Positions 23,715-40,602 of a DNA stretch of 64,000 nt are shown here, piece after piece (the stretch's first letter is position 1; each line of letters starts with the position of its first letter). The stretch is from Candidatus Heimdallarchaeota archaeon. Lineage in GTDB: Archaea; Asgardarchaeota; Heimdallarchaeia; Heimdallarchaeales; Heimdallarchaeaceae. Location of the stretch: assembly GCA_030603365.1 (NCBI GenBank), contig JAUVXV010000004.1:128001-192000 (forward strand), given 5' to 3'. The position numbers were made by a program, and so were the translations under genes. The notes beneath the pieces are model-generated. The model was given only the letters and a program-made list of their open reading frames with translations. It had not been told where the DNA came from and searched no databases.

Positions 23715-26327
23715 TCATAGTTCTATTCGAGGGTCTACTGCCACATAAACAATATCTGTTATCAGATTTCCTAGTAATATTAATATTGTAAGCAATGCTG
23801 TCGTTCCCAGTATCATTGGAAAGTCTAATAGGATCACCGCGCTTACATACTTGAATCCTAATCCTGGCCACGTAAAGAGTGTTTCAGTGATTGGAGCTCC
23901 TGCAAGTGCTGTAGCTAGAAATAGTCCAATGTAAGTAACAACTGGAATTAAAACATTCCTGAAAGCATGTCTCCAAGTAATGGATCTTTCTGAAAGTCCA
24001 TTTGCTCTAGCTGATAAAATATAATCTTGTCGAAGAACCTCAAGCATTGTTGATCTAACCAATCTGGTATATAATGCAATAGATGCAAATGTTAATGCAA
24101 TGATTGGTAAGACCATATGGAGCATTGAATCTAACAATCTTTCCGACACATTCGCCCACCACGTAGACATATTCCCTGACCAGAATAAACTCCAATTCGT
24201 ATCACTGAATACTGGCATGGGTGCTGGTACACGATGAGCTTTTGCAGCTGGGAACCAGCCCAGACCATATCCACTAAATATGTAAATCAATAATAATCCA
24301 AACACAAAAATTGGCATTGAAAGACCTAATAGTGCAAATGCACTAGCTGCTGAATCAATCCATGAATTTTGATTTTTTGCTGCTAAAATTCCTAGAGGAA
24401 TTGCTATTAAGAGGGCAAACACAAATGATGCCAATTGAAGTTTTAGTGTTTCCCAAACTAATCCTCCAATCATGTCATTAATAGATTGACCAGATTGGAA
24501 GCTAGTTCCCATATCTCCGTGAAGCAGGTTGTAAAACCAAACTACAAATTGTACATAGATTGGTTGATCTAAGCCTAATTTCCGCGTCAGATTTAATCTA
24601 TCTGCTTCCGTTACTCTTTGTTTTCCTAGAAGAAGTAAAGTTACTGGGTCTCCCATTCCACTAACCATTACAAATGTCATAACACATATCGCTATGAACA
24701 GAGGAATGAGGGTCAGCAATCTTCTTGTAATATATGTTGTTAATCTTAAAGTAGCAACATTCTTAATCCATTTAATTACACCAGTCTCACCTACTCTTCT
24801 AGTCATTGTTGAATCTGAGGGTTTTTGCCAGTCAACGGGTAAGAAAATACCTGTGAGCATCACAAAGATTCCTATCACAAACAAATAGAAACCTGGTTCA
24901 ATAGTTCCTGTAAGAGCTATGTTGAAGAAAGCAGGATTCGAATCATTAGGATTAAAGGTTATCGGGCTGAAGGTTATCGCATCTTGTCCAGAAATAATCG
25001 CTTCATATCTTCCAGCAGCAATTATCATCGATCTATTCATCGCTAGAATTGCGGCTACAAGCGATGTAAGCAAGAGAATACCACCGGCTATATCGGCAAT
25101 TATACCTCTTGATTTTAACTCTCCACTTTGGAATACTTGTCCTAAAACAATCGCCATAAGAGCAAAGAGAATAGTAAACCAAACAGCAGCTGCTAAGATT
25201 ATTATGCTACTAGGTGTTTCTGCTTGTAAAAATCTTGCTTGTGTTATGTTATCTGCGCTGTCATAGGTTATGAGTCTATAATCAACACTAAAACTATATA
25301 TTTCAACAAGGTTTCCAAAACTATCTTTATTGTAACGTGGTCTCACACTATAAACTTCTAAACCTGTTCCTGATTCAGCCACATATGCATATCCATCTAT
25401 AACAAACAATGCAACTGACTCTGCAGAAGTGTTATATGAACCTGCACTTTGTAAAACAACTGGGTTAATAATTGAAACAATGTGTAACCCATAGCTTGAA
25501 TCAGTAATATAGGCGTGTTCATTATCTATATCTATCCCTTTAACATCTCCTGAAACATCATATTGATTCCCGAATATTGGGACTTCTGGATTTGTCAAGT
25601 TAACAGATTGCAATCCGAAGTTTGCACCTACAATATATGCATAATCACCTTGAACATCAACATCATACACAGGATTACCTGCTTCATATGTTCCAATTAA
25701 AGTTGGATCGGTTGGATCACTCACATTCAAGACATGTAATCCTACTGTTGAATCTACAACATATGCAACGTCCTCTTGAACTACTACGCTATTTACATCA
25801 CCAGAAATACTGTATGTGCCTTCTTGAGATGGTGTTGCTGGAGTACTTACATCAAGTATTTGTAATCCTATTGTTGAATCTACAACATAAGCATAGTCGT
25901 TTAAAACATATACATTGTTCGCACCGCCAGCGATGCTATAAGTTCCTAAACTTGTTGGTGTTGTTGGATCTGTTACATCTACAGTTTGTAACCCTGTATT
26001 GGTATCAGCAATGTAAGCAACATTATCTGCAACAAATATACCATTGGAACTACCCGTTATACTGTAAATTCCAATAATGTCTATTGTCTGTGCATCAGTT
26101 ACATTTACAATAACTAATCCTGAATCAGAATTCAAAACATATGCAAAGCCACCATCATAATAAACTGCTGTTAAATTACCTACAATGATTTGTGTATTTT
26201 CAAGTACAATGGGTTCTGGTTCTGCAGAAGTTGAATCAAAATCAAGACCATACAAAGGTACAAAAGCTGCGATAAAAATAAGAGCAAAACCAACAATTTT
26301 AAGAGAAATTGCTACACTTTTATCCAT
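23715..26327 (-). CDS. OppB-like ABC permease fused to an extracellular LVIVD-repeat domain
   Basis: C-terminal YITRRLL...GLDQP...GDMGTS...QDYILSARANGL...HAFRN...DPRI; N-terminal ~42-aa repeats AYVxD-x3-GLxIxDVS-x-P. Confidence 0.9.
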   Translation of the reverse strand: MDKSVAISLKIVGFALIFIAAFVPLYGLDFDSTSAEPEPIVLENTQIIVGNLTAVYYDGGFAYVLNSDSGLVIVNVTDAQTIDIIGIYSITGSSNGIFVADNVAYIADTNTGLQTVDVTDPTTPTSLGTYSIAGGANNVYVLNDYAYVVDSTIGLQILDVSTPATPSQEGTYSISGDVNSVVVQEDVAYVVDSTVGLHVLNVSDPTDPTLIGTYEAGNPVYDVDVQGDYAYIVGANFGLQSVNLTNPEVPIFGNQYDVSGDVKGIDIDNEHAYITDSSYGLHIVSIINPVVLQSAGSYNTSAESVALFVIDGYAYVAESGTGLEVYSVRPRYNKDSFGNLVEIYSFSVDYRLITYDSADNITQARFLQAETPSSIIILAAAVWFTILFALMAIVLGQVFQSGELKSRGIIADIAGGILLLTSLVAAILAMNRSMIIAAGRYEAIISGQDAITFSPITFNPNDSNPAFFNIALTGTIEPGFYLFVIGIFVMLTGIFLPVDWQKPSDSTMTRRVGETGVIKWIKNVATLRLTTYITRRLLTLIPLFIAICVMTFVMVSGMGDPVTLLLLGKQRVTEADRLNLTRKLGLDQPIYVQFVVWFYNLLHGDMGTSFQSGQSINDMIGGLVWETLKLQLASFVFALLIAIPLGILAAKNQNSWIDSAASAFALLGLSMPIFVFGLLLIYIFSGYGLGWFPAAKAHRVPAPMPVFSDTNWSLFWSGNMSTWWANVSERLLDSMLHMVLPIIALTFASIALYTRLVRSTMLEVLRQDYILSARANGLSERSITWRHAFRNVLIPVVTYIGLFLATALAGAPITETLFTWPGLGFKYVSAVILLDFPMILGTTALLTILILLGNLITDIVYVAVDPRIEL

Positions 26328-29588: not shown

Positions 29589-30086
29589 TTAATATTCAGT
29601 TAATGTGCCGATTCTTAAATTATCATCATTCTCAAACAAATCTAGTTCTATAATGGAGTTCATCTTTTCTCTACCTAATAGTTGGGTAATCATATAATAA
29701 TCAGATGGAATAATATTCTCTTTTTCGACAGATATTTCTTCTTTAGTAAACCATCGTAATTCTCCTTCGGCAGTTTCTTTCAATATATCTGAATCTGCTA
29801 TAGTTAAACAAAGAATAATTAAGAATTGTTTATGTGTTTTAGCAGTTATCCCGTCTTTCAATTTCTCATTCAAAATAGCTTTTATCCCCTTCCATTTAAC
29901 AGATAAGCCTGTTTCCTCTTGTATTTCTCTAAGAAGTGCTTCTCTAATTCCTTCATCAAAGTTCATTTTTCCTCCAACTAAAGCCCATTTTTGTTGATAG
30001 TCTCCCCTTTTTCTTTTGATAAGTAACCACTTATTATTGCGTTCAATCCCTCCTATAACTATGTTAAGAATTCGTTTTTGTTCCAT
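29589..30086 (-). CDS. NUDIX hydrolase
   Basis: GGKMNFDEGIREALLREIQEETGL Nudix box. Confidence 0.9.
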   Translation of the reverse strand: MEQKRILNIVIGGIERNNKWLLIKRKRGDYQQKWALVGGKMNFDEGIREALLREIQEETGLSVKWKGIKAILNEKLKDGITAKTHKQFLIILCLTIADSDILKETAEGELRWFTKEEISVEKENIIPSDYYMITQLLGREKMNSIIELDLFENDDNLRIGTLTEY

Positions 30087-30196: not shown

Positions 30197-30799
30197 ATGA
30201 CTAACTTCATTCAGAATTTCAGACGTTCAATTCGTAGGAAACTAGGCTACCCAGAAGTTTCTATCCTTGTTTTAGGAGATAATAATCCTGCTACTAGGAA
30301 TCGGGCTCTACTAACTAAATCAGAAACATCTCTTAATGAGTTTATCATTGATAACTCTTTAGTAGAACTGCCTTATGCTTTGAACTTTAAATTCAAACAT
30401 AATCTATTTGTTCCATTTGAAGGCTTACTGTATTTCATTGATTCAACAAAAGAAGAAATGATAAAACATGAAAGAAATTTCCTTTGGGAGAAAATCGTCT
30501 GGAATGCTGAAACTCAGAATTTACCTATTGCTCTCTGCGCATATAACTCAAATTTACAAGGAGCATTATCCAGAGGGGAATTAATAGAAAATCTTTCTTT
30601 GATTCGATTAACAGATAGACTCTGGAATCTCTTTGAGACACCAGAAGTGCCATCTATAATTGAAGCACTAAAGTGGCTGAAAAAGGTAATTCATATAGGC
30701 TATGTTAAGTCATGGGAAGAAAAAGAAAAATTATTATTAAAAATTAAACCTGTAGAAATTCAGATCACTACAGAAGAAGAAAATGATCTAGATGTATAA
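30197..30799 (+). CDS. Degenerate Arf-family GTPase-like protein (pseudo-GTPase)
   Basis: Arf-like segments EVSILVLG, GLLYFIDS, LPIALCA, LSLIRLTDRLW and IIEALKWL; P-loop GKT, DxxG and NKxD are all lost. Confidence 0.7.
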   Translation: MTNFIQNFRRSIRRKLGYPEVSILVLGDNNPATRNRALLTKSETSLNEFIIDNSLVELPYALNFKFKHNLFVPFEGLLYFIDSTKEEMIKHERNFLWEKIVWNAETQNLPIALCAYNSNLQGALSRGELIENLSLIRLTDRLWNLFETPEVPSIIEALKWLKKVIHIGYVKSWEEKEKLLLKIKPVEIQITTEEENDLDV

Positions 30800-30816
30800 T
30801 AAAAGAGGTACCTCTA

Positions 30817-32367
30817 ATGACACTCTCAATACAGAATTTAATGAAAGACGGGTATGAAGGATTTTCCGTTAGATCGATTTTAATGAATCCTGAATTCCGA
30901 GACAGAGTTTTAAAAGATGTTAGCGTAAGAGGAAACGAAGTAGGTAAGAACCTTGTGATGGATAAACTCGCAGTTGGTGGAAAGGTTCTACTTACAGGTC
31001 CAACCGGTGAAGCTAAAACACTGTTTGCTAGAGTACTACTTGACCATTTAGTCAGAGAAATCAACAATTTCAAATACCACATAGCTGATTGTCCATTTTT
31101 AGAAGATGCTGGATATATCATTGATATTATAGAAAACTTTCCTGCAAATCCTTTTGCTGGTATTCGTGTTATGCAATCCCTATGTCCTTATTGTAGGAAT
31201 AACATTGAAACTATTCTATCAAAAGATGGAAACGTTGTTCAACTAGATAACACCAACAGTGTTCTAGAAATTTCTCCAAAGGAAATAGTAAGTAGATTAG
31301 GAAAACTGGAAGCAGGTAAAACAACTGTTCGTAGATCACAACTAGACCCAAGAACTGATCCTGAAAGTCTTTATATGTTATTGGCTGGAGTTGAAAACTT
31401 AGAAGAATTATTCGGAAAAGATACTTCAACAACATTTGCAGCTACTTCACATAAAGTAGGAGTTCTATCTCACGGATTCATTGTAGTTAACGAAATCCAA
31501 AGACTCCCACTTAGTCTGCTAGAATCCCTCATGGGTTTTCTTGAAGAACCAATGGGTATCAAGTATAACATTCAAGGAGAACCAGTTTATATCGATGGTG
31601 CAGTTCTTTTCACTTCAAATGCTCCTTTAACAGTTTTTGGAGAAGAAAGTCAACCTATTATCAATCGTATTCCTGAAGTTCTTTGGCCCGCACGTTCAGT
31701 AGAAAGCAGAGAACAAATCCTCAAAGATATGTTCGATGAACAATTAGTTCTAACAAGAAAGAAAATTACTGCTAATCCTTCAATTATTCAATTGCATGAA
31801 CTTGGAAAAGAAGCAACTGACTATGTAAGCAGACTAGCACTGGATTTCTTGGCTTTCTTGGGAAACAATTCACTTCCTGAATCACTTAAGACCAAAGGAT
31901 TACGTTCTGAAAGTAGATTGGCTCGTAATGATTTTTACTCAGGTCTTGATGAAGTTCACGACCCACAAAGGAACCCACATATTGACCTTCGTACTATGAA
32001 TAACATCATTGGAGAAACTGTGTTGTTCCAAATAAGAGAAGGCAAAGATTCAGATATAAACGTTATAACACTGGAAAAAATACGAAACACTATGGGTGCA
32101 TATGATGTTCCTGCTTCAATGATAAATGATGCTTTACAACAATTAAAAATCGTTTTACGAACAGCCATTAAGGAAGCTGAAGTCTCAATCAATGTTAAAG
32201 ATATATCAGAAGACATTTCAAAAATGAAAGCTTTAAGTGATGCTGAAATGTCAGAACTCATTGTAAAGTTTGAAGGTCTTGATAGATTCAAAGAGAATAT
32301 TCGTAACAAAATAGTGGAAAAACTCCAATTATCATATGAACAGTTACTAAAGGTAGATTATATCTAA
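30817..32367 (+). CDS. PrkA/YeaG-like AAA+ ATPase
   Basis: Walker A variant GPTGEAKT, YHIADCPFLED (cf. PrkA YAIKGCPMHED), LCPYCR, Walker B variant FIVVNE, sensor-1 FTSN, Arg finger IINR. Confidence 0.75.
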   Translation: MTLSIQNLMKDGYEGFSVRSILMNPEFRDRVLKDVSVRGNEVGKNLVMDKLAVGGKVLLTGPTGEAKTLFARVLLDHLVREINNFKYHIADCPFLEDAGYIIDIIENFPANPFAGIRVMQSLCPYCRNNIETILSKDGNVVQLDNTNSVLEISPKEIVSRLGKLEAGKTTVRRSQLDPRTDPESLYMLLAGVENLEELFGKDTSTTFAATSHKVGVLSHGFIVVNEIQRLPLSLLESLMGFLEEPMGIKYNIQGEPVYIDGAVLFTSNAPLTVFGEESQPIINRIPEVLWPARSVESREQILKDMFDEQLVLTRKKITANPSIIQLHELGKEATDYVSRLALDFLAFLGNNSLPESLKTKGLRSESRLARNDFYSGLDEVHDPQRNPHIDLRTMNNIIGETVLFQIREGKDSDINVITLEKIRNTMGAYDVPASMINDALQQLKIVLRTAIKEAEVSINVKDISEDISKMKALSDAEMSELIVKFEGLDRFKENIRNKIVEKLQLSYEQLLKVDYI

Positions 32368-32401
32368 GGTGATCTTACTTTAACTTTGCAGAGTTGATAA
32401 A

Positions 32402-33787
32402 ATGCCCCATCGAATAAATTTCGTAACTGAAGCAGAATTTGCTGATCCATTGCAACACTACAGTAACCAAGAGTTTGTTCTTGAGTTTGAAGATGCTGCT
32501 CAAGTGTTAAAATTATGGCGAAATCCACATTTGGGTAGAAGTTCTCGTGAAGGTGCAGTTTTATCCATTGCTTCTAAAAATGCTGTTGCAGTAGAAAACA
32601 TAATACAGAAAATTATGAATACATACTTGACTGCTGCTGAAGAAGAACGACTAGTTAATGAAATTAAACTCCTTCGTTTTATTGGTGAACGCGTACTTCC
32701 AGATGTTTTGGAAAGAGTAAATCGTAACGAACTTCAAACAGTAGAAGATATTCTAAAGTATATTCAGGAACTTCTGAAGGAAATAAAACATGAAGGGTCT
32801 GTTGACCTTCAACGTTTAGCAGAAAAACTCAATCAACTGAAGGATATTGTAGATATTGAAATTACTGATGCTTTTGGAAGGAAAAAGAGAATCTCACGAG
32901 AAAGTGTCATGGACCTTCTAGGGAAAATCCTCGGTAGATATTTAGTGAAACAAATATCTGTTGCACCAATTGATGAAGTTCAAAAGCGCCCTAGAGGCAC
33001 AATTAGATTAAAAGAAACTTATCGTAGAGCGATATTAAGTTCTCAATCTGTTCCTCCTACTAAAGTGAAACAAGAAGATATAATGAGAGTTAAGAAAGAT
33101 CGTCGATCTTTAGTGTATCTAATTGTTGATATGAGCCAATCTATGCGGAAAAGTGTTTTTGAAGGAGGGATGTCTCGTTTAGATGGGGCACTTCTTACTA
33201 GTCTCAGTTTATACTACTATTTCAAGACACTCAACAGAAGAAAAAGGAAAAGCTATGATATGTTCAAACTTGCTGTTGTTCCTATTAGAAAGAATCCTAC
33301 AGTTATAGATGGTGATAACAACATGGAGCAACTTCTACTCACAGCTGAAGCACGTGGAAAAACATATATGGTTCAAAGCGTTCTCGCTGCGATTGAGCAT
33401 GCAAAAAGTCAATATATAGAGAAAGATATTGACGTTCAGTTCACAATTGTAACAGATGGAATGCCTAATGTGCCTTCTTATCCCTTCAAGCACCGCACAA
33501 ATAAAGAACTCAAGAAGTATTTCGATGAGATTGATACTAAAACTAGACCAAATACTATAGAATGCTTACTACAACTTAACGGAATCTTTTCAAGTTTAAA
33601 GAATGACCGGTCAAGAAACTGGAATGTGTCTTATTTCTTAATGGGGCCAGATTCACTAAGAAACAAGGAAATCTATATACATACCAAAAGAATGCTGAAA
33701 GGAATCACAAGGCCTATATTAGTAGACCCAGCCCAAGTTAGGAATCTTGGAGAACAGATACTAAGGGAGAGTATTTTATATGCTTAA
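32402..33787 (+). CDS. vWA-domain protein (YeaH/CoxE-like)
   Basis: MIDAS DMSQS...T...TDG, preceded by GTIRLKETYRRA. Confidence 0.85.
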   Translation: MPHRINFVTEAEFADPLQHYSNQEFVLEFEDAAQVLKLWRNPHLGRSSREGAVLSIASKNAVAVENIIQKIMNTYLTAAEEERLVNEIKLLRFIGERVLPDVLERVNRNELQTVEDILKYIQELLKEIKHEGSVDLQRLAEKLNQLKDIVDIEITDAFGRKKRISRESVMDLLGKILGRYLVKQISVAPIDEVQKRPRGTIRLKETYRRAILSSQSVPPTKVKQEDIMRVKKDRRSLVYLIVDMSQSMRKSVFEGGMSRLDGALLTSLSLYYYFKTLNRRKRKSYDMFKLAVVPIRKNPTVIDGDNNMEQLLLTAEARGKTYMVQSVLAAIEHAKSQYIEKDIDVQFTIVTDGMPNVPSYPFKHRTNKELKKYFDEIDTKTRPNTIECLLQLNGIFSSLKNDRSRNWNVSYFLMGPDSLRNKEIYIHTKRMLKGITRPILVDPAQVRNLGEQILRESILYA

Positions 33788-35354
33788 AGAAGAACTTGCG
33801 GAGATAATTGTTGTTTATCAAAATGCTCGTGAGGATTTCAAAACTCTTGTAGGAGAAACTCCTGAAAATTATAGAGTTCTTATTTTTCTTGACCCTGAAA
33901 TGCATGTTTCTGTTAATCGAGTGGTAGAGGTCACAGGAACTCCTCAAGCTATACTAACTTCTGAGCAGATAACAAATCTTAGATCTGCAAGGATAAGTGA
34001 ATTTCTTCCTACTGGAAAAGAAACTGTCTATAATTCTCTTCCTACACTAATTTATCTATCAGTACCCTCCTACGAACTAACAATGGAGGAAGAACTGACC
34101 TTAAGAGTGATGCTTATTCATGCTTTTGCTCATGCTCTTATGAATGAGAAAACTGAATCAAATTCAGCGAGAGTTTTGGCTCAACTATATCAATTGGATG
34201 TTATACTCAAGGAACTAATGAGTAACAATGTTTTCCAGTTGAATAAAGTATCAAAAGACAAACATGTTTGGGCTTGGCAGTATTTCCAAGATTTAATTGG
34301 TGTAATAAGATTATTTACAGAAGCAGGTGTGGACGATTTCTATACTCCTCCTGAAGAAGCAAGAAAGTATACTCTGTTCAATAACTTTTCAATTGAAGCA
34401 ATAAATCTCATAGGAGAACGAGCAAAAACTGCAAGAAAGAAACATCTTCACGATATTATAGATGAAGGATTTGCTCATTATATACAACAAAAAGCAATAG
34501 AATACTTGTTAAAGAAAGATGAATACAAGCTTCCAAAAAGACATGAAGATAGATCCATAATATATCCAAATGGATTAAAAGCATTTTTAGCTCCTCCAGT
34601 AGGAGTTTTCAGTCAAGTAGCTATTAACAAACTTCTTACTAAATATAAAGATGAAAAGGAGATGTTTTCTAAATTATTCTCCTACAAATCTGATATAGAG
34701 TTTCTTGAAGAATTTACTTGGGATGAAATAAAGGATTTATTGGCAGTTAACAAAAATGCTCATTCAGAATATGTTGTAGATCATTGGCACTCATCAATAA
34801 GTAGATGGTCAGATATATGGTCTGTCTATGCTTATGGATGGAGGCAGATAGAAGAATACGTAAGTAAAGTTTTCAGAAGAAAATATTCTACTTTTGGTCA
34901 ACTTCTTGATGAAAATCCAAGTATTTCTTTTAAAGGATATGTTAAAGTGGATAACAAGAAAGTATATGTTTTTGAGGCTAATGATTATGGTATTGGAATA
35001 GATCAATTAGTCATTCTTCACAATCATATGTCTCTTTATAGAGATGATTTCAAAACAATTCTTCCTGCTTTTGCTGATGTGATTGTCTTTAAGAAAGTTG
35101 GAGGAATTCATGTTGCTACTTTATTTGCAGTCCACAAGGCCAAGTATAAATCTCTCTCGCCATATAACTTACCAGTTATAACCAGGGCAGTTCAAGTGAC
35201 AAAAAGAAAGGATGCATATAAGTTTGATTTAGACGAGGAAAAGGAAGCAAAATTCGAAATTAGAAATATTGACTATACACATCTCAGAAAGTTGACTCAA
35301 CCTCAACGAGGTGCTATTAGTTATCTAATAAAGGAGGGGTTGTTTGAATTATGA
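33780..35354 (+). CDS. SpoVR/YcgB-like zincin-fold protein
   Basis: ETVYNSLP, HAFAH and IIDEGFAHY parallel SpoVR ELVINSDP, HVxxH and MNEGWASY. Confidence 0.65.
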   Translation: MLKEELAEIIVVYQNAREDFKTLVGETPENYRVLIFLDPEMHVSVNRVVEVTGTPQAILTSEQITNLRSARISEFLPTGKETVYNSLPTLIYLSVPSYELTMEEELTLRVMLIHAFAHALMNEKTESNSARVLAQLYQLDVILKELMSNNVFQLNKVSKDKHVWAWQYFQDLIGVIRLFTEAGVDDFYTPPEEARKYTLFNNFSIEAINLIGERAKTARKKHLHDIIDEGFAHYIQQKAIEYLLKKDEYKLPKRHEDRSIIYPNGLKAFLAPPVGVFSQVAINKLLTKYKDEKEMFSKLFSYKSDIEFLEEFTWDEIKDLLAVNKNAHSEYVVDHWHSSISRWSDIWSVYAYGWRQIEEYVSKVFRRKYSTFGQLLDENPSISFKGYVKVDNKKVYVFEANDYGIGIDQLVILHNHMSLYRDDFKTILPAFADVIVFKKVGGIHVATLFAVHKAKYKSLSPYNLPVITRAVQVTKRKDAYKFDLDEEKEAKFEIRNIDYTHLRKLTQPQRGAISYLIKEGLFEL

Positions 35355-36124
35355 GTTTCCTAGATTTCTTACGCGGATTAACAATAGGAAGAAAACTAAA
35401 AAGTGAAGATCCATTAGATCGTGCATATTTCTCTCTTTTCATACGAAGAAGAGGAAAAGCTAAGGATATTAAAAGAATTTACCCTTTGATTGAGGATTCG
35501 GATTGGAATGTGAGAAATGCAGCAGCAGCTACCATTATAGAATTAGCTTCTAAATATCCAGAAATCAAAAAGAATGTTCTTAATCACCTTCATAATCTAA
35601 TTGAAAATAGCTCTTTGGCAATTAAACTTTCTACTTTGGAAGTTTTAGGTCATCTGAAAGATTATGGTTCAAAACCTTACTTAGTTAAGATTTTGGAAGA
35701 AAGTGATTATGATCTTCAATATGCAGCTATACGCGCAATTGGTTATTTAGATGATGTTGATGTTCTTAATCCACTTAAAAACGTAGTTTATGCAAGAGAT
35801 TATATCACAAGAAGAGCAGCAATACTCTCCGTTGTCAGAATTGCAAATTCAGTTAAAGAGGAAGAACAAGTCGGAAAATTAACCGATCATATGCATATTG
35901 TAATGGAATCTTACCTTGAATTAGAAGAGTTAGGGGAGACTATTTGTAAGATAATGGATTTTGCAGAAGTAGATAAACTACCTGAAATGAAAGGATATTC
36001 AGAATCAGAAATTGTTAAATTGGAAGGATTAATTGAGCAAAAAGATTATAGCGTTGAACTCTACCAGAATTTCGCTAGATTGATTTTTCCTGTATATTTC
36101 CCACTTGATGAGGAGGAAAACTAG
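35351..36124 (+). CDS. HEAT-repeat protein
   Basis: DSDWNVRNAAA, ESDYDLQYAAIRAIG, RDYITRRAAI; ATGA overlap with the upstream gene. Confidence 0.85.
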   Translation: MSFLDFLRGLTIGRKLKSEDPLDRAYFSLFIRRRGKAKDIKRIYPLIEDSDWNVRNAAAATIIELASKYPEIKKNVLNHLHNLIENSSLAIKLSTLEVLGHLKDYGSKPYLVKILEESDYDLQYAAIRAIGYLDDVDVLNPLKNVVYARDYITRRAAILSVVRIANSVKEEEQVGKLTDHMHIVMESYLELEELGETICKIMDFAEVDKLPEMKGYSESEIVKLEGLIEQKDYSVELYQNFARLIFPVYFPLDEEEN

Positions 36125-36390
36125 AACCTTCTCCTTCTAAATTTGTCTGTGCAGAAATCCACAAACTCTTTTCCTATTTCATTCAAGTCTTTTTCTTGTT
36201 TCCATTTCTTTTCAGTATGTTCTTGTATTTCTAGACCACAAAGATGAAAACATGTTGATATTAAGGCAAATCCCATCATTCTTTCTCTAAGGTTGTCAGA
36301 ATCTATCAGTTTCAAAGCTCTCTTTTGGTGGGGATTTATCACTTCAGATTCTTCGTAAAAAACTTGATCTGTCTCTGTGGTAACAATCAT
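36121..36390 (-). CDS. Hypothetical protein
   Basis: ORF with protein-like composition; ATG at 36390 is the likelier start. Confidence 0.55.
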   Translation of the reverse strand: MIVTTETDQVFYEESEVINPHQKRALKLIDSDNLRERMMGFALISTCFHLCGLEIQEHTEKKWKQEKDLNEIGKEFVDFCTDKFRRRRF

Positions 36391-36467
36391 TATTATTATA
36401 GAATCGTTATTTGAGTATATAAAACTACAATAAACGGTAAGCAAGGCTAGAAAATTTTTGTATTACT

Positions 36468-36814: not shown

Positions 36815-38797
36815 ATGATAATGACACTAGACATTGAGACTCCCTTAAAACCTAGAGGGGATCAACCAAAGGCAATAGAAAAACTAGTTGATGGAATAAA
36901 GAAAGGACATCAAAAACAAACTCTCCTTGGAGTTACTGGATCTGGTAAAACTATGACCATGGCACGTGTTATTGATAAAATAAAGAAACCAACCTTGGTT
37001 ATTGGTCCTAATAAAACCCTTGTTGCCCAGTTGTTTGGAGAATTTAAGACGCTTTTTCCATCAGCAAGTGTTAACTATTATGTTTCCTTTTATGATTATT
37101 ATCAACCTGAAGCATACTTGCCTTCCAAAGATCTTTACATCGAAAAAGATGTAGATATCAATCGCGAAATTGAACGCTTACGACATACGGCTCTTGAAGC
37201 TTTGGCTACCAGGGATGATGTAATTGTTTGTGCTTCAGTGTCTTGTATTTATGGAACAGGTCATCCCGATGTTTATCGTTCTAGACGTATAGCATTAAGT
37301 GTAGGAGAGAATCTTGATCGTCAAGATTTAATGTTAGAATTAGTGAAGAATCAGTATGAAAGAAATGATATCAGTCTTGAACGTAAAAATTTCAGGGTTA
37401 GAGGAGATTCCATAGATATTTTTCCGCTTTATGGTGATTATGTCTATCGTATTGAGTTCTTTGGAGACGAAATAGAACGTTTAACAGCTCGACATCCAGT
37501 CACTGGAGAGAAAATCAAAGAATATCCTCAAATGTCGATTTTTCCAGGTACACAATATCTTGCAAATGATGCTTTCTTCGAATCTGCTTTAGGCGATATT
37601 AAATTAGAACTTGATATGCGTTTAGCTGAATTCCAAAAAGAGGGTAAAGTTGTAGAAAGCCATAGACTAAGACAGAAGACTCTTTATGATTTAGAACTTC
37701 TAAGAGAAACAGGAGGCTGTTCTGGAATAGAAAATTATTCCCGTCACTTCGACAGAAGAAAACCAGGAGAAAAACCCTTTACTCTTCTTGATCACTTCCC
37801 AGATGATTTTCTATTAATTATAGATGAATCACATCTTACAATTCCCCAACTTCATGGTATGTATGGGGGAGATTTTTCAAGAAAAAAGAATCTAATTGAT
37901 CATGGTTTCAGGCTTCCATCAGCAGCTGATAACAGACCTTTTAGATTTGAAGAAACCGAGAAATATATGAGAACTGTTGTTTTTACAAGTGCTACTCCTG
38001 GGCCATATGAACATAAGTTTTCTCAGCAAATTGTGGAACAGATAATTCGACCCACAGGACTTATTGATCCTAAAATAGATGTCAGACGTAATGAAGGGCA
38101 AATACTTGATTTAGTTAGCGAAATAAATCAGAGAGTAGCTAAAGCGGAAAGGGTACTAGTTACTACACTAACAAAACAGAGCGCAGAAATGCTCTCTGAT
38201 TACCTGCTAGAGATGAAAATAAAATCAATTTATCTACATCATGAAGTTGATACTCTTGATAGAATAGAGATATTGAAGGACCTTAGACTTGGAAAGTATG
38301 ATGTAGTAGTTGGAATTAATTTATTGAGAGAAGGTTTAGATCTTCCTGAGGTAGCTTTAGTAGCTATACTTGATGCAGATAAAGAAGGATTTCTAAGATC
38401 GAGGAGATCACTGATTCAACTTATGGGACGAGCAAGTAGAAATGTTCATGGGAGTGTCATTCTCTATGCTGATAAATTGACAGATTCCATGAAACAAGCG
38501 ATTAGTGAAAATAATAGAAGACGAATTATTCAGCAAGAATATAACAATAAGCACGGCATAAAACCTACTACTATTCAAAAAGAAGTCAAATCAATCGTAG
38601 AACATTTGATGCAAGTTACTCCAAAGGAAGAAGAGAAAATAGACGTTCCGGATGGTTTAGCAACTGAAGATATCTTCCTTATTATCGATGATTTAAAAGA
38701 AAGAATGGCAGAAGCAGCAGGAACACTAGACTTCGAAAAAGCTGCTATCTATAGAGATAAAATTAAAGAACTTGAAAAAATGGTGAGCTCTAAATGA
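36815..38797 (+). CDS. uvrB: Excinuclease ABC subunit B
   Basis: GDQP, GVTGSGKT, YDYYQPEAY, DESH, GINLLREGLD, C-terminal UVR domain. Confidence 0.97.
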   Translation: MIMTLDIETPLKPRGDQPKAIEKLVDGIKKGHQKQTLLGVTGSGKTMTMARVIDKIKKPTLVIGPNKTLVAQLFGEFKTLFPSASVNYYVSFYDYYQPEAYLPSKDLYIEKDVDINREIERLRHTALEALATRDDVIVCASVSCIYGTGHPDVYRSRRIALSVGENLDRQDLMLELVKNQYERNDISLERKNFRVRGDSIDIFPLYGDYVYRIEFFGDEIERLTARHPVTGEKIKEYPQMSIFPGTQYLANDAFFESALGDIKLELDMRLAEFQKEGKVVESHRLRQKTLYDLELLRETGGCSGIENYSRHFDRRKPGEKPFTLLDHFPDDFLLIIDESHLTIPQLHGMYGGDFSRKKNLIDHGFRLPSAADNRPFRFEETEKYMRTVVFTSATPGPYEHKFSQQIVEQIIRPTGLIDPKIDVRRNEGQILDLVSEINQRVAKAERVLVTTLTKQSAEMLSDYLLEMKIKSIYLHHEVDTLDRIEILKDLRLGKYDVVVGINLLREGLDLPEVALVAILDADKEGFLRSRRSLIQLMGRASRNVHGSVILYADKLTDSMKQAISENNRRRIIQQEYNNKHGIKPTTIQKEVKSIVEHLMQVTPKEEEKIDVPDGLATEDIFLIIDDLKERMAEAAGTLDFEKAAIYRDKIKELEKMVSSK

Positions 38798-40602
38798 GTC
38801 TTTTCTCTGATCTTGAAGAGATACCGGACGACCCAGGAGTATATTTAATTAAAGATAAAGATGAAAAGGTAATTTACGTAGGTAAAGCCAAGAATTTGAA
38901 GAACAGAGTTAAACAACATTTCCAAACCACCTCTCTTCCAAAAGAAGACAAACTTCAAGAATTAGCTCATAGAGTTAATTGGTTTTTAGTAAGAAATGAA
39001 TCAGAGGCATTGATTTTAGAGAGGAAATTGATAAGACAACTATCTCCTAAACTTAATAGCATGCTAAAGGACGATAAGTCTAATTTACTTGTTAGAATAA
39101 CTATGGAAGATACATTCCCTCAGATACTTATTGTTAGAGAAACAGATTCACGTGTAAGTAAGAGTGTATACTTCGGTCCTTTTACTAATAACACGATGCT
39201 CAGACAGACAGTTAAATTGGTTTTAAGGTTATTTCCAATATGTAACTGTGGTAAAAATTTTGAAAGAATCAGAGAAAAAGGTTCTACAATTCGATGTATG
39301 CGGGCAAGGTTGGGAAGATGTTTAGCTCCTTGGAAGAACGATATTACTTCAGAAGAATATCGAAAAACAGCCAAAAATGTAATTTCTTTTCTCAGGGGAG
39401 ATGTAGCTCAACTATTAGATAATATTGAAAAAGAGATGTGGGTAGCTTCAAAGGATTCAAATTATGAAAAAGCAGCATCTTTACGAGACCTCACTCGAGC
39501 TGTACGTACAATTTTGAATATTCAAGAAGATCTTAAATCTGTAAGAAAGAATGTAGATGTATTGGCTTATATTGAGGAAGAGGATGACATAGCTTTCTGC
39601 AAATTAGAAATTAGAGCGTATCGCATACATAACATCATGAACGATGTTTTTCCAAAAGAGGACGGGAAGTTAAAGAAACTAGGTGAAGTGTTAGCATTTA
39701 TTTATGGTCAAGAAAAACCAAAATTTTCAATTTTACTAGATAAGAATTTTACAAATCGTTTTAAAATAAATATTGAATTACCCATAAAATATCCTACAAA
39801 CACTGTTTCAGAGCAATTGTGTAAGATAGCAGAAAAAAATGCTCGTAGTGAGATGCAGAAATATAAACGAGATGTTCAATATCTGAAAGAATCCGAAAAT
39901 GTTCTAGAGGAAATGCAGAAACAATTTCAGCTATCAGACTTACCTGAAATCATTCACGGGTATGATATTTCTACTCTCGGAGGAGAACATTCTGTTGGTT
40001 CCTGTGTTGTTTTTCAGAATGGTAAACCTCAGAAGAAATTATATAGACGTTTTCGAATTAGAAAAACCTATTCTGAACCAAATGATTATGCAATGATGGA
40101 GGAAGTTATTTCTAGAAGATATAAGTCTGAGGCTTTGAAAAATGATCCTTCACCTCAATTACTTATCATTGATGGTGGAAAAGGACAACTAAATATTGCT
40201 ATTAAGGTACTAAAAAAACTCAAAATTGATGTACCAATTATAAGCATCGCTAAGAAGAAAGAGGAAATCTATACTAAATGGTCAGATGACCCCCTAAGTA
40301 TTGAAAAAGATTCTAGTGTGCAACGTTTAGTTCAATATGTGCGAGATGAATCACACCGTTTTGCAATTAATTACCATAAGACATTGAGATTAAAATCAGT
40401 TAAAGATTCTGCCTTAGAAAAAATAAAGGGAATAGGGAAAGCTAAGGTTTCAATGCTTTTTCAAGAATACAAAAATCTACAAAATATATCTAATGCAACA
40501 AAAGAGGAAATTATGAAGAAAATAGGTGTAAACGAGGAGATAGCAAAACAGGTCTTATCCATGACTCAAAAAATTCTGAAAAAGAGCCCATACGATGATT
40601 AA
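38794..40602 (+). CDS. uvrC: Excinuclease ABC subunit C
   Basis: GIY-YIG (PGVY...YVGKA), YDIS, DGGKGQ, RDESHRFA, HhH. Confidence 0.95.
   Translation: MSLFSDLEEIPDDPGVYLIKDKDEKVIYVGKAKNLKNRVKQHFQTTSLPKEDKLQELAHRVNWFLVRNESEALILERKLIRQLSPKLNSMLKDDKSNLLVRITMEDTFPQILIVRETDSRVSKSVYFGPFTNNTMLRQTVKLVLRLFPICNCGKNFERIREKGSTIRCMRARLGRCLAPWKNDITSEEYRKTAKNVISFLRGDVAQLLDNIEKEMWVASKDSNYEKAASLRDLTRAVRTILNIQEDLKSVRKNVDVLAYIEEEDDIAFCKLEIRAYRIHNIMNDVFPKEDGKLKKLGEVLAFIYGQEKPKFSILLDKNFTNRFKINIELPIKYPTNTVSEQLCKIAEKNARSEMQKYKRDVQYLKESENVLEEMQKQFQLSDLPEIIHGYDISTLGGEHSVGSCVVFQNGKPQKKLYRRFRIRKTYSEPNDYAMMEEVISRRYKSEALKNDPSPQLLIIDGGKGQLNIAIKVLKKLKIDVPIISIAKKKEEIYTKWSDDPLSIEKDSSVQRLVQYVRDESHRFAINYHKTLRLKSVKDSALEKIKGIGKAKVSMLFQEYKNLQNISNATKEEIMKKIGVNEEIAKQVLSMTQKILKKSPYDD

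Follow-up and report, generated by a model that had tools for sequence, protein, structure and literature searches.

The stress module formed by PrkA/YeaG (PF08298 and PF06798), YeaH/YhbH (DUF444, PF04285) and SpoVR/YcgB (PF04293) is widespread, occurring in bacteria, haloarchaea and some large phages, and kinase activity, protease activity and neither of the two have all been reported for its biochemistry. In CbbQ-CbbO and NorQ-NorD, an AAA+ ring works with a von Willebrand factor A (vWA) protein that grips an acidic residue of its client via the metal of a metal-ion-dependent adhesion site (MIDAS). Genetically, the canonical PrkA triad functions as a unit (cofitness r > 0.7 in six bacteria), and its phenotypes depend on nutrients (bioRxiv 10.1101/072470); the pure PrkA of Bacillus anthracis has negligible kinase and protease activity, the likeness to kinases being assigned to its C-terminal domain (PMC13001217). 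Here we describe a five-gene locus of Candidatus Heimdallarchaeota archaeon, at positions 30,197 to 36,124 of a 64,000-nucleotide stretch (the window: positions 128,001 to 192,000 of contig JAUVXV010000004.1, assembly GCA_030603365.1), which encodes in order a degenerate Arf-family protein (pseudo-Arf), an AAA+ ATPase, a vWA protein with a MIDAS, a SpoVR-like protein and a HEAT-repeat protein (Table 1).

We propose, by analogy, that the products of the operon form a single complex that remodels proteins at the expense of ATP, and that the operon is a divergent variant, with a short ATPase, of the PrkA/YeaG-YeaH-SpoVR/YcgB module; we put the probability of this reading at roughly 0.55. Its firm basis is that the ATPase motifs and the MIDAS are intact, that the features of a peptidase and of a GTPase are lost, and that the five genes are retained together under purifying selection. 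Homology of the three core genes to the canonical triad is highly probable, and it is likely that the complex acts by remodelling rather than by proteolysis or phosphorylation. Literature searches (Asgard SpoVR; Heimdallarchaeal vWA plus AAA+), with most subscription papers outside their coverage, returned no description of such a system, and this variant of a known triad is apparently without a prior publication among those found.

The five genes and the canonical triad

The five genes are co-oriented, with gaps of 17 and 34 bp followed by overlaps of 8 and 4 bp, and from this spacing we infer that they form a single transcript. The arrangement, together with the motifs YHIADCPFLED, LCPYCR, ETVYNSLP, HAFAH and DEGFAHY and an intact MIDAS, had been named in an original prediction made from the DNA letters, and the open reading frame (ORF) coordinates and translations agree with it on each count. 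A Nudix-like gene diverges from the operon at its 5' end and a 107-aa ORF converges on it at its 3' end, and since both neighbours lie on the opposite strand, the unit consists of exactly five genes; an extension into the upstream Nudix/threonine-dehydratase genes was rejected because of the orientation of the Nudix gene. The genome holds one copy of each operon gene, and in comparison with two close relatives all five have ratios of nonsynonymous to synonymous substitution (dN/dS) of 0.03-0.07, with dS partly saturated. The operon is not a chance arrangement, because its gene order is the same in every family locus of sufficient length and its dN/dS values are this low. Scanning the locus with sigma-70 promoter and terminator models, which are poorly suited to archaea, gave results at chance level.

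The ATPase carries a GPTGEAKT Walker A motif, a VVNE Walker B motif and a Cys-bearing insert after Walker A. Residues K67 (Walker A), N225 and E226 (Walker B), T266 and N268 (sensor 1), whose roles are named by position, are invariant among 57 homologs, as are R284 and R392, and C92, C123 and C126 are kept in 55 of the 57. The AlphaFold2 model (pLDDT 82.8) has an AAA+ fold. Pfam returns generic AAA+ matches only: AAA_PrkA (PF08298) is missed, also in four carrier genomes at E <= 1, and the PrkA C-terminal domain (PF06798) goes unmatched here and in four carrier genomes, the C-terminal parts giving 0.13% in hhalign. Against a strict PrkA profile (n = 12) the ATPase reaches 97.9% (E 6e-13, 248 columns), and against MoxR, represented by a small reference set of three archaeal proteins, 19.7% over Walker A only. 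In a maximum-likelihood tree of 34 AAA cores, the operon family with P0113 and P0116 (97/90) adjoins PrkA (99/97), and a 98/92 branch sets these two groups apart from ChlI-like ATPases and MoxR. When 1.84 billion proteins were searched with the ATPase profile, the matches from beyond the family were P0113 and P0116, a pair of true PrkAs and a protein of the AAA_PrkA/chelatase-like kind; the named matches with PrkA domains are P0120, P0123 and P0124. Structure searches gave no family placement, with HslU first in Foldseek (TM about 0.3) and many tied AAA+ folds in VIA (Z 11-13), NorQ and CbbQ2 among them (Z 11.6-11.8), and no PrkA chain was among the Protein Data Bank (PDB) matches listed. Single-sequence hhalign against E. 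coli YeaG, YeaH and YcgB gave matches that were too weak. We conclude that the ATPase is probably a sister family of PrkA and not itself a PrkA.

The vWA protein, directly after the ATPase, has a helical N-terminal half and a MIDAS whose five residues (D243-x-S245-x-S247, T321 and D352) are invariant in 27 of 27 copies. DUF444 (PF04285) does not match it, and its distant homologs match VWA_2; its putative equivalence to YeaH follows from gene position and from the other two core genes.

The product of gene 4 has no Pfam match, PF04293 included. Its AlphaFold2 model (pLDDT 79.5) aligns over residues 6-522 with ESM Atlas models (TM 0.54, 375 aligned, both sides being predicted models), and the 30 nearest Atlas models list SpoVR families only, which bears out the SpoVR likeness first noticed from its motifs. 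Local motif alignment pairs YEiV.Ns.P/aHv.gH and nEG.A of SpoVR with ETVYNSLP/HAFAH and EGFA of gene 4. Residues 1-338 resemble M1/M32 gluzincins at a middling Z of 7-8; Foldseek against the PDB gave nothing at E <= 0.001, and an Atlas feature search returned unnamed clusters only. The gluzincin-like site consists of H114-A-F-A-H118 and E229, a set of three ligands that 16 of 26 copies retain in full, and position 115 is A, S, L or T, never Glu, in all 26. Judged by these residues, gene 4 encodes a pseudo-peptidase without the catalytic Glu, as canonical SpoVR appears to be, and proteolysis, an option in the original prediction, becomes unlikely with the zincin Glu missing from every copy. Asgard proteins of about 1300 aa at four other loci (L094, L095, L096 and L098) contain a weak SpoVR-like stretch near EG.A (E 1e-5 to 7e-4).

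The HEAT-repeat protein matches Pfam HEAT_2 (7e-24). Its best NCBIfam matches are NblB/CpcE/CpcF and its best PDB matches alphaRep, those to eukaryotic adaptins being far weaker, and the genome holds further HEAT repeats of the PBS-lyase type. It had been called eukaryote-flavoured; its nearest matches are of the prokaryotic PBS-lyase/alphaRep type, and we discarded it as a eukaryotic signature.

The pseudo-Arf passes the Pfam Arf cut-off (25.9 bits against 22.3), and the solved structures nearest to its profile are Arl1 (3e-10), Arl3, Arf1 and Asgard Arf (8OUK, 6e-9; 8OUL). The G1 and G3 motifs are each found in 0 of 32 copies, whereas the genome's five canonical ArfR-like proteins all have both; at the position of the G4 lysine, 1 of 26 copies has Lys, and the switch regions are degenerate too. 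The Arf fold with lost nucleotide motifs is thus as predicted, and on sequence grounds the protein is ArfR-derived, nucleotide-blind and devoid of a GTP switch. It shares with Asgard ArfR (bioRxiv 10.1101/2024.02.28.582541; PMC11914678) and eukaryotic Arf/Arl proteins the fold, the conservation of the C-terminal half (mean column identity 0.52 versus 0.35) and, most clearly in its own family, an N-terminal amphipathic helix, and differs from them in lacking G1, switch I, G3 and the G4 lysine and in having new invariant residues W97 and W102, a LIRLTDR surface and an AAA+ operon context. The conserved residues are W97, W102, L135-x-R137-x-T-D140-R141 and W160, of which W97 and W102 are missing from most canonical ArfR copies. 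W160 occupies the position equivalent to Trp172 of Arf1, a back-side residue with an allosteric effect on AP-1, a HEAT-based complex (PMC5540999), a loose precedent that we use as an analogy only. The N-terminal helix (residues 4-14) is basic and amphipathic, with a hydrophobic moment of 0.98, and resembles the helices of the genome's own ArfR proteins; across the pseudo-Arfs of the family the moment is 0.5-1.0. In the Asgard Arf preprint (bioRxiv 10.1101/2024.02.28.582541), which set divergent sequences aside, term searches turned up no operons, neighbourhoods or HEAT partners.

Taken together, the locus shares with the PrkA-YeaH-SpoVR module the gene order, which is that of the canonical triads of Thermomicrobium and Pontibacillus, an AAA+ core with a CP.xED...LCP..R insert, a MIDAS vWA protein, and a SpoVR fold with a Glu-less H-x-x-x-H...EG.A site. 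It differs in its ATPase, which at 516 aa is about 100-200 aa shorter than PrkA (about 600-740 aa), lacks the PrkA C-terminal domain and is atypical in both Walker A (GEAKT) and Walker B (VVNE), and in its two additional genes, for the pseudo-Arf and the HEAT protein. The triad named in the original prediction is therefore retained as a PrkA-adjacent ATPase, a MIDAS and a SpoVR fold, and given up as Pfam membership, for no operon gene reaches the cut-off of AAA_PrkA, DUF444 or SpoVR. With the MoxR-type AAA+/vWA pairs (NorQ-NorD, CbbQ-CbbO and RavA-ViaA) it shares a likely principle, an AAA+ ring and a MIDAS adaptor that remodel a client; unlike MoxR, the ATPase has a Cys-bearing insert and a C-terminal extension, and it is not a MoxR by profile.

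Distribution and gene order in related genomes

We surveyed 400 Asgard genomes, 83 in the class Heimdallarchaeia and 317 outside it. The operon ATPase is present in single copy in 55 of the 83 and was not found in the 317. By family, it occurs in 30/31 genomes of its own family, 16/16 of the order's other families and 9/12 of one further family, and it was not found in two other Heimdallarchaeia families (0/22 and 0/2 genomes). The vWA and HEAT profiles match 54 genomes each, with the same positive and negative families, and related contigs carry the labels Heimdallarchaeota, Heimdallarchaeaceae and Kariarchaeaceae. Pseudo-Arf genes were recovered in 57 genomes, 55 plus two with divergent copies found with a closer query; all 55 ATPase-positive genomes have a single copy, including those with a displaced gene, and the search gave no pseudo-Arf in the two families without the ATPase (24 genomes). 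The system had been described as Asgard-specific; it is confined to part of the Heimdallarchaeia and is not Asgard-wide, with a distant relative on the unassigned contig L100.

The order ATPase-vWA-SpoVR-like-HEAT is kept in every related locus long enough to show it, with the HEAT gene directly after gene 4, and the pseudo-Arf gene lies directly upstream of the ATPase in its own family and, at greater distance, in 16 of 25 genomes. Of the linkage that was expected in related genomes, the part concerning the triad and the HEAT gene holds, and the part concerning the Arf gene does not hold in the other nine.

Two loci depart further from this arrangement. On L088 the ATPase is divergent from a vWA-SpoVR-like gene pair followed by a 391-aa, weakly HEAT-like protein that does not align with the operon HEAT family (0.4%) and is at most an analogous partner; it has two predicted N-terminal membrane helices, which, with no pseudo-Arf adjacent, fits a need for membrane attachment. 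The unassigned Logan metagenomic contig L100 encodes an ATPase (510 aa, E 3.5e-18), a vWA protein (456 aa, profile E 6e-20) and a probable SpoVR-like protein (505 aa, E 0.004) for which no other homolog was found in a 5.8-billion sequence set. This triad lies within a long co-oriented run of unannotated genes, several apparently encoding helical-repeat proteins (237, 730, 509 and 324 aa), and it implies that short-ATPase triads may exist outside the Heimdallarchaeia. Canonical PrkA-YeaH-SpoVR genes score above the cut-off in only 2 of the 400 genomes, both fragmented bins, where transfer or contamination is possible. One SpoVR of the bin G079 has a long insertion, probably an intein.

Other genes occur beside the pseudo-Arf or in its place. 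In Kariarchaeaceae-like loci, a secreted-type gene combining an FKBP domain, a membrane helix and a Cys ribbon, often together with a ParB-like gene, adjoins the pseudo-Arf, even where the latter is away from the operon, and in genome G010 it immediately precedes the ATPase; the genome studied here has similar genes at sites away from the operon. Three genomes of one genus with a displaced pseudo-Arf carry in its place a Cys-ribbon and short helical protein upstream of the ATPase, and a winged-helix protein takes this position before two stand-alone ATPase homologs. Downstream of the operon in the window is a uvrB-uvrC pair, and pairs of similar size flank the operon in several family members, a synteny that is probably unrelated to it. 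The window also contains a fusion of an extracellular repeat domain (LVIVD-like by eye) with an oligopeptide ABC permease, and genes of its size occur near the operon in several relatives.

Table 1. Positions of the operon genes, their neighbours and features of related loci
Feature	Sequence	Position	Strand	Length
Gene 1, pseudo-Arf	window	30197-30799	+	200 aa
Gene 2, AAA+ ATPase, PrkA/ChlI-like group	window	30817-32367	+	516 aa
Gene 3, vWA/MIDAS adaptor, YeaH position	window	32402-33787	+	461 aa
Gene 4, SpoVR-fold protein	window	33780-35354	+	524 aa
Gene 5, HEAT-repeat protein	window	35351-36124	+	257 aa
Nudix-like gene, 5' neighbour	window	29589-30086	-	
ORF, 3' neighbour	window	36121-36444	-	107 aa
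uvrB-uvrC pair	window	36815-40602	+	
Repeat domain-ABC permease fusion	window	23715-26327	-	870 aa
Divergent ATPase and partner genes	L088	3894-9530		
ATPase-vWA-SpoVR-like triad	L100/L140	928-5352		
Winged-helix protein	L087	7365-7943		192 aa
Winged-helix protein	L142	5973-6551		192 aa
FKBP-membrane gene	L056	4220-4852		
FKBP-membrane gene	L058	9216-9887		
FKBP-membrane gene	L061	9444-10193		
FKBP-membrane gene	L063	6356-6994		
FKBP-membrane gene	L108	5435-6079		
FKBP-membrane gene	L110			
FKBP-membrane gene	L111			
FKBP-membrane-like genes, own genome	C1	24074-25379		
Cys-ribbon and short helical protein	L067	9623-10207		193-267 aa (range of the three)
Cys-ribbon and short helical protein	L068	8203-9006		
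Cys-ribbon and short helical protein	L069	9510-10091		
Canonical triad genes	G079	C578, C713/C418 (L092, L097, L115, L120, L125, L126)		
Canonical triad genes	G151	C416		

A possible remodelling complex and its alternatives

If the analogy with CbbQ-CbbO and NorQ-NorD holds, the ATPase would form a ring and the vWA protein would use the metal of its MIDAS to grip an acidic client residue. The SpoVR-like protein could bind peptides without catalysis, as a receptor or co-adaptor, or it could itself be the client; the HEAT protein would be its scaffold, and the pseudo-Arf would be a constitutive, non-switching docking subunit that binds through its conserved back-side half (helices 3-5). In the organism's own family, the basic amphipathic helix of the pseudo-Arf might tether the complex to the membrane's inner face. 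The putative client would be unfolded or remodelled, and thereby activated or inactivated, by analogy probably in adaptation to nutrients or stationary phase. We consider it fairly probable that the pseudo-Arf is a physical subunit of the complex; that it anchors at the membrane is tentative, membrane recruitment being something we infer. A three-chain prediction of ATPase, HEAT protein and pseudo-Arf scored 0.78, which does not discriminate, since a control with the ATPase replaced scored 0.70; controls with a partner replaced scored 0.00. The more specific arrangement, in which the inactivated Arf would be a constitutive membrane anchor with its back side on the HEAT solenoid and would bring the SpoVR/vWA/AAA+ machine to the membrane, we regard as speculative and rather improbable.

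Several observations weigh against the operon being such a complex. Of 25 genomes outside the family, 9 have a displaced pseudo-Arf gene, 2-5 kb away or on another contig; the gene is not adjacent to the ATPase in L088 or L100, and the ATPase homologs of L087, L142 and L143 have no adjacent partners. Co-occurrence among related genomes is not independent and may reflect one gain followed by vertical descent. The amphipathic helix, strong in the organism's own family as predicted, is weaker in more distant families, being weak or absent in many f4 and f7 copies (moment mostly 0.3-0.5), and W160 is common to canonical ArfR proteins, so that its conservation may be structural. As for the core genes, the ATPase aligns with short archaeal ChlI-like ATPases about as closely as with PrkA (hhalign 96.7-98.3%), and the AAA-core tree has long branches, few taxa and a midpoint root. 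A YeaH profile drawn from the triads of bacteria, phages and Asgard bins matches the vWA protein weakly (hhalign 60.8%, E 8e-5) and without setting YeaH apart from other vWA families, and the likeness of gene 4 to SpoVR in sequence is weak as well (12-61%). Both the client and the activity of the complex are hypothetical, and reports on how the canonical triad works conflict.

The displacement of the pseudo-Arf bears on a reading in which the operon is a four-gene AAA+/vWA/SpoVR/HEAT core and the pseudo-Arf is a neighbour with a role of its own, whose upstream place reflects no more than synteny and shared transcription. Its separation from the ATPase in the loci just named fits this reading, as does the fact that in Kariarchaeaceae-like loci it stays beside the FKBP-membrane gene when it is away from the ATPase, and its sequence diverges faster (22-31% identity) than that of the ATPase (51-59%) across the same distance. 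Against this, the pseudo-Arf accompanies the ATPase in every positive genome and was not found in the two negative families, its gene immediately precedes that of the ATPase, in the same orientation, in three separate families (with a gap of 17 bp in the locus studied here), and a dead GTPase under a dN/dS of about 0.06 needs a binding partner. We therefore consider a pseudo-Arf that is a mere neighbour unlikely.

The closeness of the ATPase to ChlI-like proteins is what a chelatase-type machine for metal insertion or cofactor maturation, similar to ChlI/ChlD or CobS/CobT and with the SpoVR-like protein as its large metal- or tetrapyrrole-binding subunit, would lead us to expect. The language-model neighbours of the ATPase in ESM Atlas features are archaeal Mg_chelatase/AAA_5 clusters (score 0.97), and the vWA segment before the MIDAS presumably resembles ChlD. 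Short archaeal ChlI/Mg-chelatase-like ATPases (for example P0124 with a DUF444-like vWA protein in L104) share with the operon ATPase a similar length, an NE-type Walker B, a Cys insert and a downstream vWA gene. However, these ATPases form a separate branch in the tree, which places the operon ATPase with PrkA, and their surroundings held no recognisable SpoVR-fold, HEAT or Arf gene; the third subunit has a SpoVR/gluzincin fold and not that of ChlH or CobN, and the loci that we read showed no tetrapyrrole genes. A chelatase is distinctly unlikely on this evidence.

The gluzincin-like fold of gene 4, the joint presence of H114, H118 and E229 in most copies and the first rank of HslU in Foldseek, though at a low TM, could point to an ATP-dependent protease with the SpoVR-like protein as its peptidase chamber, but we judge this very unlikely, because the catalytic Glu is replaced throughout, the metal ligands are lost in 10 of 26 copies, canonical SpoVR is without the Glu too, and pure B. 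anthracis PrkA hardly acts as a protease (PMC13001217). A phosphorylation-signalling pathway, the published model for YeaG-YeaH-YcgB (bioRxiv 10.1101/072470, 10.64898/2026.07.20.739708), is the least likely of all, as the PrkA C-terminal domain was undetected in the operon ATPase and B. anthracis PrkA is hardly a kinase either (PMC13001217).

Implications for the triad and for Asgard Arf proteins

Under the reading that we prefer, a remodelling complex derived from the PrkA-YeaH-SpoVR module, the variant keeps the ATPase motifs, the MIDAS and the SpoVR fold and drops the 'kinase' domain, which points to remodelling as the core activity of the triad, and the operon offers a compact system for testing the biochemistry of the triad. 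Heimdall-group Asgard archaea are the closest relatives of eukaryotes, and here an Arf-family protein, a member of a eukaryotic-signature class, appears to have been repurposed as a pseudo-GTPase, a use that motif-based surveys of GTPases would miss. If the Arf is indeed an anchor on the HEAT solenoid, the PrkA triad would work without its supposed kinase domain, and the locus would provide an archaeal pairing of Arf and alpha-solenoid parallel to the Arf-adaptin coats of eukaryotes.

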